Of a stretch of DNA of 64,000 bases, positions 12,044-48,611 are shown one piece after another; the stretch's first letter is position 1, and every line of letters starts with the position of its first letter. Both the position numbers and the translations under genes were made by a program. The notes under the pieces are model-generated. The model saw only the letters and a list, made by a program, of their open reading frames with translations. It was not told the DNA's origin and made no database searches. Location of the stretch: NCBI GenBank assembly GCA_965206595.1, contig OZ242214.1, positions 1,394,986 to 1,458,985 on the forward strand, in the 5' to 3' direction. Source of the DNA: Candidatus Latescibacterota bacterium (GTDB lineage: Bacteria; Latescibacterota; UBA2968; UBA8231).

Positions 12044-12283
12044 GGCATTCTCCTCAATGAAGGGGAGGCGGCCGTCTGGTTCACGCGGCCGCCTTGCAGG
12101 GAGCGCGGCAGGTTGTGCGCAGGTCGACGGGAGATCTTCTCAAGGCGATACCAAAGGCTGGTGTCACGGGAACGACCGGGTTCGGGAAGGGTCGAGGCCT
12201 CCCTTGACGATTCGCTTTCCGCAGCGGGAGATCGGGGCAGGAACGGAAGCCTCGAGCTCCGGGGCGGGAAATGGGCCTCCTCC

Positions 12284-12709
12284 TCAATGCGGCTCCGAAC
12301 CGGTGGTCCTCTCCGGCGATGTGCAGCTCTCCGCCTTGGCCAGGGCCTCGAGCCGGGCGGCGATGCCTGCGGCCAGCCCTCCCGGTTTCACGCCGACGAC
12401 CGACAGGTCGCCGCGCCCTGCTGCCGCGGTGAGACTGGAGAGATCCGCCACCCGGAAGAGCCGCGTTCCCGTCCGCCGCCGCCGTCCGAGTTCTCTCCAG
12501 GTGCCGGCGGCCAGGTCCGTAGAAGCGAACAGGCAGGCGAGCTGACGGACGCGCCGCACCGCGGACAGGCCCATCACCGTGTCCCCGGACTGGCAGCCGA
12601 TGCCTATCAGGCGGGATATCGCCGCGACCGCAGCTTCGTCGAGCAACTCGGCCTCGACGGAGGGGGCTGGCCTTTCCTTGTCCCGCTGATTTCGTTTTGA
12701 GGACCCCAC
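12284..12709 (-). CDS. Possible L7Ae/YlxQ-like RNA-binding protein (start uncertain)
   Basis: Core LIGIGCQSGDTVMGLSAVRR ... LACLFASTDLAAGT ... GVKPGGLAAGI resembles the L7Ae/YlxQ fold pattern; first codon is GTG without a clear RBS; an internal TTG (~12649) has GAGG upstream. Confidence 0.3.
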   Translation of the reverse strand: MGSSKRNQRDKERPAPSVEAELLDEAAVAAISRLIGIGCQSGDTVMGLSAVRRVRQLACLFASTDLAAGTWRELGRRRRTGTRLFRVADLSSLTAAAGRGDLSVVGVKPGGLAAGIAARLEALAKAESCTSPERTTGSEPH

Positions 12710-12869
12710 GGCCCGAACCTATCATCCACGCAAGCGCACCGCCAGGGGTGCCCCCCGCGGGTTCGAGCAGGCAAGCGGGTTCAAACTGGGACTCCACTTT
12801 CTCCCGGTAAAACGGATCCGGACTATTCACGAAAGGGCTCTCCATGTCCGTCGATAGACCCAGCCGCCC

Positions 12870-13884
12870 TAGTGTCCTGTCGTATAATTAACTGTACAAA
12901 CAATTGAAGGTGCCGTAGGTTTCTCTTATCCCCCTTCTGAAAGGAGAGACCTATGGTGACGGGGCGTCCATTACCGCCGTTAGAGCTGAGTCCGTCGGAC
13001 CGGGAACGATTGGAATCGATGGCCAAATCCCGGAGCCTTTCCCACGGGTTGGTGCGGCGAGCCGAGATTAGTCTGCTGGCCGCAGAAGGCGGGCCCAATG
13101 AAGCCGTCGCCGCCGCCGTGGGTGTGACGCGTGCTACGGCTTTCTCGAAAACGGGCAAGTGGCGCCGGCGCTTTCTCGAAAACGGGCTCCAGGGCTTGCA
13201 TATGGTTTGCAGCCCCATCGACACAAGCACTTCACGCTTTCCACCGATCCTTTCTTTGTCGACAAAGTACGGGATATCGTCGGCTTATACCTGAATCCCC
13301 CCGAGCACGCCCTGGTGCTGTGCGTCGACGAGAAGAGCCGGATCCAGGCGTTGGAACGAAGTCAGCCCATGCTGCCCCTGGGACTGGGATACGTGGAAGG
13401 GATTACGCACGATTACAAGCGCCATGGCACCACCACCCTGTTTGCCGCCTTGGACGTAGCCACCGGGGAAGTGATGACCCAGTGCAAGCCCCGTCATCGT
13501 CACCAGGAGTTCCTTCAGTTCCTGCGCCACATCGAGGCCCACGTCCCCGCTGACCTCGATATTCATCTCGTCGTCGACAACTACGCCACGCATAAGCATG
13601 CCAAGGTCAAGCGATGGTTGGCACGGCGTCCCCGATTTCACGTTCACTACACCCCCACCTATGCTTCGTGGCTCAATCAGGTGGAGATCTGGTTCAATAT
13701 CCTTACCCGCCAGGCGGTTCGCCGGGACTCGTTCCGCAAGGTGTCGGAGCTCATCGAGCGCATCGAACGCTACACGGCCAAATGGAACGCCAACGCACAC
13801 CCTTTCGTGTGGACGGCTACGGCCGATTCCATCCTCGCGAAAATCAAGAGACTTTGCGAACGAATCTCTGCGACACAACACTAG
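12870..13884 (+). mobile_element. IS630/Tc1-mariner-family insertion sequence, copy 1 (degenerate)
   Basis: Ends shared with copy 2 begin right after a TA on each side (TA|GTGTCCTGTCG ... CGACACAACAC|TA); imperfect 11-bp terminal inverted repeats; about 157 bp shorter than copy 2. Confidence 0.8.
12953..13884 (+). pseudogene. IS630-family DDE transposase, copy 1, inactivated by ~170-bp internal deletion plus a 12-15-bp duplication
   Basis: Split into ORFs 12953..13294 and 13159..13884; relative to copy 2 the segment encoding [16 protein letters not shown]...HRIWRTYGL is missing and CTTTCTCGAAAACGG is duplicated; otherwise near-identical at DNA level. Confidence 0.8.
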
Positions 13885-15768
13885 CCTGTCGAGTCTCCGC
13901 AGGGAGGCGAAATCCCTGCTCGACCGGGCGCGGCGCAAAGAGCATGAAGCGTTGGCCCTCATTGGCGAGCACCACCCGGACCCGGGAGAGTTCAGCACCT
14001 ATCGCGACGCCTTGCTGGTGGTCGCCCGCAAACAGGGGCATGCCGGGTGGGGGGAGTTGCAGCGGGCTTTCGAGGAGGAGGCCGGAGCCTCGGGAAAGCT
14101 CGAAGAACGGGCCGATCTGTTCGCCGAGCTCGCCTGCCTTTCGTATCGCGGCGACGACCACGTCAGCCGCCGAGAGCGCGCCGCCCGCATGCTGGGCGAA
14201 ACTCCTGGGATTTCCAGGGTGAGCCCCTGGGCAGCCGCGGCCGCTTCCGATGTCGAAGCTCTTGGGCAGCTGATCGGGGATGGGGAAAGCGCGGTCGTCC
14301 CCGGCGGGCGGCGCGACTGGCCGCCCCTCCTCTACCTCTGCTTCAGCCGGGTTCCGGATGCCCGGCCGGGGGGCGACGCCCTGGCCGCGGCGGAATTTCT
14401 GCTCGCCGCCGGCGCCCCCGGCGACACCAGCGTCGGCCCGGAGGAACGGGGGGGCTGGAGCTGGTCGGCCCTGACAGGGGTCATGGGGGAAGGGGAGCAT
14501 GGCCTCCTGCAGCAGCCCCCCCACCCGCGGGCCCGCGAGCTGGCGGAGGTGCTGCTCGACGCCGGGGCCGACCCCAACGACTCCCAGGGGCTCTACAACA
14601 CCATGTTCACCCCGGACAACGAGTGGCTCGATCTGCTCCTGTCACGCGGTCTGCAGGCCTCCGCAGTGGTCTATCCCTCCCACGACCCGCCGCTGAGAAC
14701 CCTCGACTACCAATTGTGCTCGGCGGTGAAGAGGGGGGTGGCCGAACGGGTGTCCCTGCTGCTGGGGCACGGCGCCGACGTGGCGGCACCCGATATGTAC
14801 AACGGCCGCTCGAACTACGAGAACGCCGTTCTCGGAGGCTTCCCGGAGATCGCGGAAATGCTGGCCCAGCACGGCGCCGAGGTTGTCGAGCTGTCCCTGG
14901 AGGACCGCTTCACCGCGGCGGTGATGAGCGGCGACGAGAGCAGGGCGAGACAGCTGCTTGAAGAAGCTCCCCGCATGATCGAGAACCCCGAGCTGCTCCA
15001 GGAAGCGGTCACCAATACCGCGGCGACGCGCCTGCTTCTCGACCTCGGGGCCGATCCCGACGCCCCGAACGAGAGGGGACGCGTCCCCCTGCACTGGGCC
15101 GCCTGGGAGAACAGCGGCGAGGTCGTCCGCCTGCTGCTGGCTCGCGGGGCGAACGGCGAGATCCGGGAGCGGGACCACGACGCCACCCCGGTCGGCTTCG
15201 CCAATCACGCCGGCCACTTCGAGCTTCGCGGCCTGCTGCTCGATCACAGCAGGGACGTGTTCGACCTGACCGCCTACGGAAGGGCGGGGCAGCTCGCCGC
15301 GGTCCTGGAATCCGACCCGGACCTGGCGAATGCCCGCCTCGTGGGAGGGCACACCCCGGTTCACGGCGTTGCGGCAGGCCCCGAAGGGGAACAGGTGCTC
15401 GACCTCCTGCTCGCCCACGGCGCCGACATCGACGCCCCTGCAGCCGACGGCACGACTCCGCTGTCCGCGGCGCTCGAGCGCGGGGACGAGGAGCTGGCAG
15501 CCCTTCTGAGGGCGCGCGGCGCCAGGGAACCCGAGGGGGACTGAGGCTCCCGGCGTTCCGGTTCGCCGCCGCAAAACCGACCATCCTGCCGGTTCCTCCA
15601 CTGACCCACCCGGGAGATCGGGTGCATTCGGCCGGGGCAACGAGGTGCCCCCCGGCGGTGAAGCAGCTGTCCGCCGCTTGTTCCGGGTCACCTGTTTGCC
15701 TATTAACGTGTCCGGCAGGCCTCGCCGCGGCGGGGCCGGGAGACCCAGGAGACACGCGGAGAATAGCG

Positions 15769-17693: not shown

Positions 17694-17796
17694 TGGGGAT
17701 GGGGATTCTGTTGAAGCTACGTGCAGCAGCCGGGATGCCCGGCCATCGACCGGGGCGACAGCCCGCCTGCGGGGCAGCTCTCCGGGGAGGCCGGCC

Positions 17797-47409: not shown

Positions 47410-48581
47410 TAGTGTCCTGTCGTATAATTAACTGTACAAACAATTGAAGGTGCCGTAGGTTTCTCTTATCCCCTTTCTGAAAGGAGAGACCTATGGTGAC
47501 GGGGCGTCCATTACCGCCGTTAGAGCTGAGTCCGTCGGACCGGGAACGATTGGAATCGATGGCCAAATCCCGGAGCCTTTCCCACGGGTTGGTGCGGCGA
47601 GCCGAGATTAGTCTGCTGGCCGCAGAAGGCTGGCCCAATGAAGCCGTCGCCGCCGCCGTGGGTGTGACGCGTGCTACGGTCGGCAAGTGGCGCCGGCGCT
47701 TTCTCGAAAACGGGCTCCCGGGCTTGCATGATGAGCTGCGCTCAGGGGCGCCACGATCGAGTACGGATGAACAGGTAGCCGAGGTGGTATACAAGACCCT
47801 GAAGACCAAGCCCAAAGACGAAACACAGTGGTCGGTGCGCTCCATGGGCGAAGAAACCGGCTTGACCAAGGACGCGGTTCATCGCATTTGGCGCACGTAT
47901 GGTTTGCAGCCCCATCGACACAAGCACTTCACGCTTTCCACCGATCCTTTCTTTGTCGACAAAGTACGGGATATCGTCGGCTTGTACCTGAATCCCCCCG
48001 AGCACGCCCTGGTGCTGTGCGTCGACGAGAAGAGCCGGATCCAGGCGTTGGAACGAAGTCAGCCCATGCTGCCCCTGGGACTGGGATACGTGGAAGGGAT
48101 TACGCACGATTACAAGCGCCATGGCACCACCACCCTGTTTGCCGCCTTGGACGTAGCCACCGGGGAAGTGATGACCCAGTGCAAGCCCCGTCATCGTCAC
48201 CAGGAGTTCCTTCAGTTCCTGCGCCACATCGAGGCCCACGTCCCCGCTGACCTCGATATTCATCTCGTCGTCGACAACTACGCCACGCATAAGCATGCCA
48301 AGGTCAAGCGATGGTTGGCACGGCGTCCCCGATTTCACGTTCACTACACCCCCACCTATGCTTCGTGGCTCAATCAGGTGGAGATCTGGTTCAATATCCT
48401 TACCCGCCAGGCGGTTCGCCGGGACTCGTTCCGCAAGGTGTCGGAGCTCATCGAGCGCATCGAACGCTACACGGCCAAATGGAACGCCAACGCACACCCT
48501 TTCGTGTGGACGGCTACGGCCGATTCCATCCTCGCGAAAATCAAGAGACTTTGCGAACGAATCTCTGCGACACAACACTAG
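47410..48581 (+). mobile_element. IS630/Tc1-mariner-family insertion sequence, copy 2 (intact)
   Basis: About 1.17 kb; TA at both junctions; same imperfect 11-bp terminal inverted repeats as copy 1; single intact transposase ORF. Confidence 0.85.
47493..48581 (+). CDS. IS630-family DDE transposase (intact, 362 aa)
   Basis: N-terminal helix-turn-helix-like region, DDE-type core ([15 protein letters not shown] ... [19 protein letters not shown] ... [12 protein letters not shown]); RBS GAAAGGAGAG. Confidence 0.9.
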
Positions 48582-48611
48582 ATGGTATCCTCTCTTCAAG
48601 GAGGTAAACTC

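Follow-up and report, generated by a model that had tools for sequence, protein, structure and literature searches.

In a 64-kb stretch of DNA from an uncultured Latescibacterota bacterium (the window, to which all positions refer), the larger part of a gene for an ankyrin-repeat protein lies directly behind an insertion sequence (IS). This raises the question whether the IS has split a formerly continuous gene and, if so, at which position it inserted, how old the insertion is and what has become of the element and the gene since then. The best explanation, to which we assign a probability of roughly 93%, is that an IS630-type element inserted at the TA of a CTAG sequence within the ankyrin gene, that the TA was duplicated and that the inserted copy decayed later.

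The insertion point and the reconstructed reading frame

The interrupted locus is composed of the following parts:

12844-12871, plus strand: 5' fragment of the ankyrin gene, comprising the ATG, codons 2 to 9 and the first base of codon 10; its last two bases are the left TA
12872-13881, plus strand: defective IS630-family element (copy 1), 1010 bp, both termini intact, recognized by HTH_23, DDE_3 and the IS630 model
13882-13883, plus strand: right copy of the TA, which reads CTAG together with C13881 and G13884
13884-15544, plus strand: 3' part of the ankyrin gene, comprising the last two bases of codon 10, codons 11 to 562 and the stop codon; no further lesions

The ankyrin gene starts with ATG 12844, and its first nine codons (12844-12870) encode MSVDRPSRP. 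The T of the left TA (12870-12871) closes codon 9 (CCT) and its A opens codon 10 (AGC), so that the dinucleotide lies within the sequence 5'-CTAG-3'. Behind it, the sequence continues with GTGTCCTGTCGTATAATT..., the first bases of the IS. The 3' end of the IS at position 13881 reads ...GCGACACAACAC and is followed by the right TA, beyond which the ankyrin gene resumes with GCCTGTCGAGTCTCC.... Excision of the IS and one TA in silico yields the empty-site sequence ...CGCCCTAGCCTGTCG... and an in-frame open reading frame (ORF) of 562 amino acids plus stop, which is made up of the nine codons in front of the IS and 553 sense codons plus stop behind it. The chance of an in-frame join alone is 1 in 3; however, the reconstruction exceeds what is expected by chance because an N-terminal consensus common to 26 homologues bridges the junction and because the nearest homologues share the length of 562 amino acids.

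An earlier reading of this DNA, made from the sequence only, had placed the IS at 12872-13881 between two TA dinucleotides and the start codon at 12844, which is correct to the base. The in-frame join of MSVDRPSRP to the downstream part, which it had also proposed, holds, and the 554 codons it had counted behind the IS correspond to the 553 sense codons plus stop. Its claim that the pre-insertion ORF can be reconstructed exactly is borne out by syntenic orthologues that are uninterrupted and agree in start and length, and the ribosome-binding site it had suggested for ATG 12844 may correspond to a purine-rich GAAAGGG 8 to 14 nt upstream, which is kept in three of four orthologous loci.

Orthologues of the disrupted ankyrin gene

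The downstream ORF matches the Pfam families Ank_2 (83.6 bits; cut-off 27.3), Ank (75.8) and Ank_4 (70.8). When the reconstructed 562-amino acid protein was compared with a large protein collection, the sole match of 100% identity was P0001, a 530-amino acid call starting at the TTG of codon 33, which represents the 3' remnant of the split gene and is on record on three contigs. The next matches are 81 to 88% identical, have a length of 557 to 562 amino acids and start with MS(A/V)D..SRPSLSSLRREAKSLL. The N-terminal consensus M...LP.RPSLSSLRKQAKSLL is kept in 27 aligned family members down to an identity of 37%, and the residues A18, K19, L21 and L22 are nearly invariant in this alignment. The motif RPSLSSLRREAKSLL of the orthologues spans the junction. 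While the sequence-only reading had named homologues that start at an internal Met and lack a conserved N-terminus as evidence that would speak against it, the nearest homologues do carry this N-terminus.

An uninterrupted allele was found at four syntenic loci (L002, L003, L004 and L007; 83 to 88% amino acid identity), two of which, L004 and L007, are records of metagenome-assembled genomes (MAGs) titled 'Candidatus Latescibacterota bacterium'. In all four, the ankyrin gene starts with the same ATG as in the window and is embedded in a shared gene order, namely a 477-amino acid gene, a 141-amino acid gene, the ankyrin gene, PhyH, 2-Hacid_dh and creatininase. The GAAAGGG motif upstream of the start codon is replaced by AAAAGG in L004. 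A paralogue of the ankyrin gene was not found within the 64-kb window.

Anatomy of the element and its intact relative

When the window was searched with the element, a second copy came to light, and comparison of both copies with each other and with L001, a 2.3-Mb contig of a different ENA assembly that carries the IS as well, delimits the termini and lesions of copy 1:

12872-12890, plus strand: left terminal inverted repeat (GTGTCCTGTCG...), which pairs with the right end; contains a TATAAT hexamer at 12884-12889
12953-13294, plus strand: N-terminal remnant of the transposase, with a helix-turn-helix (HTH) part of about 83 amino acids in frame, followed by an out-of-frame tail; HTH_23 match and comparison with the 362-amino acid protein of copy 2
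13142-13153, plus strand: net insertion of 12 bp, in which the 15-nt sequence CTTTCTCGAAAACGG, copied from 31 nt downstream, stands in place of TCG; direct repeat, alignments to copy 2 and L001
13159-13884, plus strand: C-terminal remnant of the transposase with the DDE_3 catalytic domain, an ORF of 241 amino acids whose TAG stop is made with the right TA
13200-13201, plus strand: junction of a 169-bp internal deletion, by which roughly residues 80-135 of the transposase are lost and the frame is shifted
13863-13881, plus strand: right terminal inverted repeat (...CGACACAACAC); inverted-repeat search and copy comparison
47412-48578, plus strand: intact IS copy 2, 1167 bp, with a single ORF for a 362-amino acid transposase at 47493-48581

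Copies 1 and 2 are 99.3% identical outside the indels. The identity begins and ends at exactly the same bases in both copies and the surrounding DNA is unrelated; copy 2 is flanked by TA dinucleotides at 47410-47411 and 48579-48580, which are again located within CTAG. Copy 1 is shorter (1010 bp versus 1167 bp) because it has lost 169 bp and gained 12 bp, and since the deletion removes residues 80-135 or thereabouts and shifts the frame, its transposase is left as separate HTH and DDE fragments. The terminal inverted repeats are imperfect: 9 of their outermost 11 bases match, and 12 of their outermost 19. In the inverted-repeat search, the left terminus paired with 13871-13884, and it is conserved across 17 copies of the element. 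Programmed frameshifting was considered as a reason for the two transposase ORFs and rejected, as the transposase is encoded by a single 362-amino acid ORF in copy 2 and in more than 100 homologues, and the break coincides with the 169-bp deletion.

With its termini kept, its transposase broken and an intact relative present, copy 1 has the make-up expected of a non-autonomous IS derivative, and copy 2 is a likely source of transposase in trans. The exact transposase ORFs of the window (362, 241 and 113 amino acids) are not on record in the large protein collection, which may not contain the assembly of the window. Copy 2 itself lies in an intergenic CTAG; a strong Shine-Dalgarno sequence, AAGGAGGT (48598-48605), follows around 20 nt downstream, and ATG 48612, the start of an ORF with a signal peptide-like N-terminus, around 30 nt downstream. 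Copy 2 may affect the transcription of this gene.

Family assignment of the transposase

The ORFs of copy 1 match HTH_23 (E-value 7e-7) and DDE_3 (E-value 1.8e-24, profile positions 3-146 of 146). The NCBIfam equivalog model for IS630, NF033545, which has a curated cut-off of 100 bits, scores 270.3 bits with copy 2 and 181.4 bits with the C-terminal part of copy 1, and the runner-up family model, IS481, reaches 62.9 bits and stays below its cut-off of 224. These matches bear out the assignment to the IS630 family made in the sequence-only reading; to this the present comparison adds that the element is defective and non-autonomous and derived from an intact copy of the type found at 47412-48578. 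Elements of the IS630 family have a length of about 1.0 to 1.4 kb and contain one transposase gene, a description that fits copy 2 with its 1167 bp and single ORF. Close homologues of the transposase carry HTH_23, HTH_28, HTH_29, HTH_32 and DDE_3. Candidate catalytic residues, picked by inspection only, are D178, D261 and E297 (spacings of 82 and 35; motifs CVDEKS, VVDNYA and NQVEIW), which lie inside the DDE_3 match. A comparison of the transposase with solved structures gave no match at the sequence level. The element probably represents a hitherto unnamed IS630-family member of an uncultured lineage.

Related copies and targeting of CTAG

The transposase belongs to a large family with more than 8000 proteins at E-values of 1e-30 or lower and a modal length of 362 amino acids; this lineage contains many IS variants, with clusters of 70 and 132 members at 90% identity. 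Via the transposase homologues, 14 copies of the two closest subfamilies (94 to 96% protein identity of the transposase) were fetched with their flanks and combined with the two window copies and the L001 copy to a set of 17 insertions with unrelated flanks. TA is present on both sides in all 17 insertions, and in 16 of them it is part of CTAG. The duplication of TA that had been read from copy 1 is thus seen at copy 2 and at 15 related copies elsewhere as well, and the target can be defined more narrowly as CTAG. The single deviating insertion, L088 (ENA ERZ25072670 ctg212876_2x_l; IS ends at around 520 and 1686), appears to have TAA on both sides and the target CTAAG, which reflects either a duplication of 3 bp or an error in a contig of 2x coverage.

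The window contains 26 CTAG sites, whereas about 207 would be expected from its base composition, and four of the 26 are made by the two IS copies; only around 2% of its 1061 TA dinucleotides are located within CTAG. The preference of the IS for CTAG is therefore real, as this sequence is rare in the window and yet is the target of 16 of the 17 insertions compiled. As a result of the CTAG depletion, few insertion sites are available. Used as a DNA pattern, the IS terminus had no exact match in GTDB representative genomes or JGI metagenome contigs. The CTAG signature derived from the 17 sites helps to recognize more insertions in related MAGs. In the contig L097 (ENA ERZ25069580 ctg98732_7x_l), a related IS at 520-1686 lies between polyketide synthase ORFs of 2301 and 1154 amino acids; it probably splits one large polyketide synthase gene, which would be another gene disruption by this group of IS elements.

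Age of the insertion

The sequence-only reading had regarded the insertion as a recent event. This is supported by its absence from the four nearest orthologous loci, but the insertion is common to the window and L001, and the window copy already carries the 169-bp deletion and the 12-bp duplication. L001, which is an 11x long-read metagenome contig, has an IS that occupies the same TA and points the same way; this copy is full length, lacks both the 169-bp deletion and the 12-bp insertion and has one extra C. From these comparisons, the insertion postdates the split from the nearest species sampled but is shared by the assemblies available for the present one. Enough time has passed for the window's IS copy to decay, and 'recent' applies only in a relative sense.

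The flanks of the IS are identical in both assemblies, with 0 substitutions over about 1.76 kb on the upstream side and about 4.7 kb on the downstream side (around 6.4 kb in total). The comparison of window positions 12872-13890 with L001 positions 1763-2940, however, gave 19 substitutions and three indels inside the IS (around 2%) and three further substitutions at 13886, 13887 and 13890, which are 3 to 7 nt past the right end of the IS. At five or more positions of the IS, L001 carries the allele of the outgroup subfamilies, whereas the two window copies have a derived one in common. A stretch of 12 nt at 17757-17768 is present in the window and absent from L001, and is the only difference outside the IS region.

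Consequence for the ankyrin gene

A distance of 1012 bp now separates the remainder of the gene from its first nine codons with the ATG, from the purine-rich motif and from the promoter region. Since the start region is split off from the other 553 codons, a full-length protein with the conserved N-terminal motif can no longer be produced, and inactivation of the ankyrin gene is the likely outcome. A scan for sigma-70-like consensus promoters revealed none that points out of the IS in its right part, a finding of little weight in an organism of this phylum; the sole match of the scan (12697-12725) is located upstream of the ankyrin ATG. For annotation, it follows that the public 530-amino acid ankyrin call with a TTG start is the 3' remnant of a 562-amino acid gene and should be flagged as disrupted, and that the IS copy should be recorded as a defective IS630-family element with the boundaries 12872-13881.

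The proposed course of events is as follows. An IS630 element of 1167 bp, similar to Tc1/mariner elements, would have inserted by cut-and-paste DDE transposition, a chemistry that is presumed here by analogy, into the TA of a 5'-CTAG-3' spanning codons 9 and 10 (CCT AGC) of the 562-codon ankyrin gene, whereby the TA was duplicated. The insertion parts the promoter, the ribosome-binding site, the start codon and the first nine codons from the other 553 codons. Later, in the lineage of the window, the inserted copy lost 169 bp and gained a templated duplication of 12 bp. These lesions break the transposase into HTH and DDE fragments, while both inverted repeats stayed in place, so that copy 1 could presumably be moved only with transposase provided by an intact copy such as that at 47412-48578.

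Alternative explanations

Several observations weigh against this course of events, either as a whole or in one of its steps. In the relatives, codon 9 is CCC and not CCT (the codons at the insertion site read CCC AGC, and CCC AGT in L004); as the pre-insertion codon of the window is CCT, a synonymous C-to-T change must have made the CTAG target in this lineage. The protein collection contains no full-length or empty-site allele of more than 88% protein identity, and the pre-insertion allele of this species is therefore deduced rather than observed; likewise, a degenerate 44-nt pattern across the reconstructed junction had no match in JGI metagenome contigs. The 553 downstream codons are free of stop codons and frameshifts and include an in-frame TTG at 13952 (codon 33). 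Within the IS, no stop codon interrupts the ankyrin frame from 13478 onwards (135 codons), and an ATG at 13598 would give rise to a fusion ORF of 648 amino acids (13598-15544). A subgroup of homologues with 487 to 491 amino acids (around 70% identical) naturally lacks the first 75 to 85 residues or so. Lastly, a divergence of 2% in the interior of the IS together with identical flanks is not explained by a single vertical inheritance.

The open downstream frame, the open frame inside the IS, the start of the public call P0001 at TTG and the homologues of about 490 amino acids in related MAGs would all suit a gene that is interrupted but not silenced, with transcription out of the IS leading to a short protein from TTG 13952 or to an IS-ankyrin fusion from ATG 13598. 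In this case, the event would alter the regulation or the N-terminus of the ankyrin protein rather than knock it out. We consider this unlikely: the segment lost contains the nearly invariant residues A18, K19, L21 and L22, the right part of the IS has no sigma-70-like outward promoter, and long alternative frames are common in a genome with 65% GC, copy 2 having the same frame open out of its right end. The flanks are identical between the assemblies and offer no differences from which selection could be read.

The mismatch between the IS and its flanks suggests that the IS at this site might not be one inherited insertion. Two variants could have inserted independently at the same CTAG in two near-identical strains, or a resident copy could have been overwritten by gene conversion or gap repair from other copies, and the many IS variants in this lineage, as well as the outgroup alleles of L001, would be compatible with this. 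On the other hand, two independent insertions are unlikely to share site and orientation by chance, given about one CTAG per 2.5 kb and thus thousands of sites per genome, and gene conversion does not explain the three changes outside the IS. The candidates for the mismatch are gene conversion among copies, independent insertions at the same CTAG and mixing of copies in the consensus of L001, which was built from 11x long reads and may combine different copies inside a multi-copy repeat. A turnover of the IS at this CTAG site that is far more rapid than that of the chromosome around it is rather improbable, and so is the view that the IS is not one inherited insertion. Rapid turnover would draw on the 2% divergence between identical flanks, the subfamily-specific alleles, the three changes past the right end and the internal deletion with templated filler DNA in one copy. 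If it were true, it would point to repeated excision and gap repair from ectopic copies, the route by which internally deleted Tc1- and P-type elements are made in eukaryotes, or, alternatively, to recurrent insertion at a CTAG hot spot, which is possibly favoured by selection to lose the ankyrin protein. Either outcome, if real and not an assembly artefact, would be documented in an uncultured bacterium, and the mismatch between the two assemblies is the only lead at this locus that goes beyond a routine gene disruption by an IS.

As the window seems to derive from a long-read MAG and the IS is present in multiple copies, a repeat-induced misjoin could be envisaged, in which case the junctions would be chimeric and the gene intact in the real genome. 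This is highly improbable and was rejected, as the same junctions are present in L001, a different assembly; in addition, the TA/CTAG footprint is exact, the reading frame is exactly restored, the flanking synteny is continuous over the IS, and the sole allele of more than 88% identity on record is the truncated call, found on three contigs. The least tenable alternative, that the gene naturally starts behind the IS, as in the public annotation of a 530-amino acid protein from TTG 13952, and that the upstream ORF is fortuitous and the IS intergenic, is refuted by the orthologues, which use the same ATG and residues, and by the conserved N-terminal motif, which is continuous over the insertion point.

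Neighbouring genes

In the region upstream of the ankyrin gene (12284-12709 and 12081-12845, both on the minus strand), public gene calls conflict between assemblies: an ORF of 141 amino acids was called in L002, and an overlapping ORF of 254 amino acids without Pfam match was called in L001. Neither of the two was matched by an NCBIfam model. The 254-amino acid call, which would extend over the start codon of the ankyrin gene, looks spurious.

Comparison with known systems

The type element of the family, IS630 of Shigella sonnei, is reportedly characterized by a preference for TA within CTAG, as named in the title of a study by Tenzen and Ohtsubo from 1991 that is cited in PMC2170065. The element described here resembles it in having a single ORF, a length of around 1.15 kb, a transposase with HTH and DDE domains, short imperfect inverted repeats, TA duplication and the preference for CTAG. 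In contrast to IS630, it comes from an uncultured lineage labelled Latescibacterota, and its copy in the ankyrin gene is internally deleted and non-autonomous; the likeness concerns family features.

IS630-family elements insert into TA, duplicate it and move by cut-and-paste transposition; for ISY100 of Synechocystis PCC 6803, no protein other than the transposase is needed for this process (PMC2170065). We assume, by analogy, that the present element moves by cut-and-paste in a transposase-dependent manner as well. The two elements agree in architecture, with two HTH motifs in the N-terminal domain and a DDE domain at the C-terminus, and in the duplication of TA. In vitro, 34 of 39 ISY100 insertions occurred in TA and no restriction to CTAG was reported (PMC2170065), whereas the present element is found in CTAG in 16 of 17 cases.

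Copy 1 further resembles internally deleted derivatives of Tc1/mariner-type elements, which are precursors of MITEs (miniature inverted-repeat transposable elements): the termini are kept, the transposase is lost to an internal deletion accompanied by a short templated filler, and transposase could be provided by an intact copy elsewhere in the genome. Unlike these, copy 1 is the only such copy seen and, with 1010 bp, is far larger than a MITE. Taken together, an IS has inserted here in textbook fashion and duplicated its target, and the inserted copy has since decayed; as a gene disruption, this is routine.

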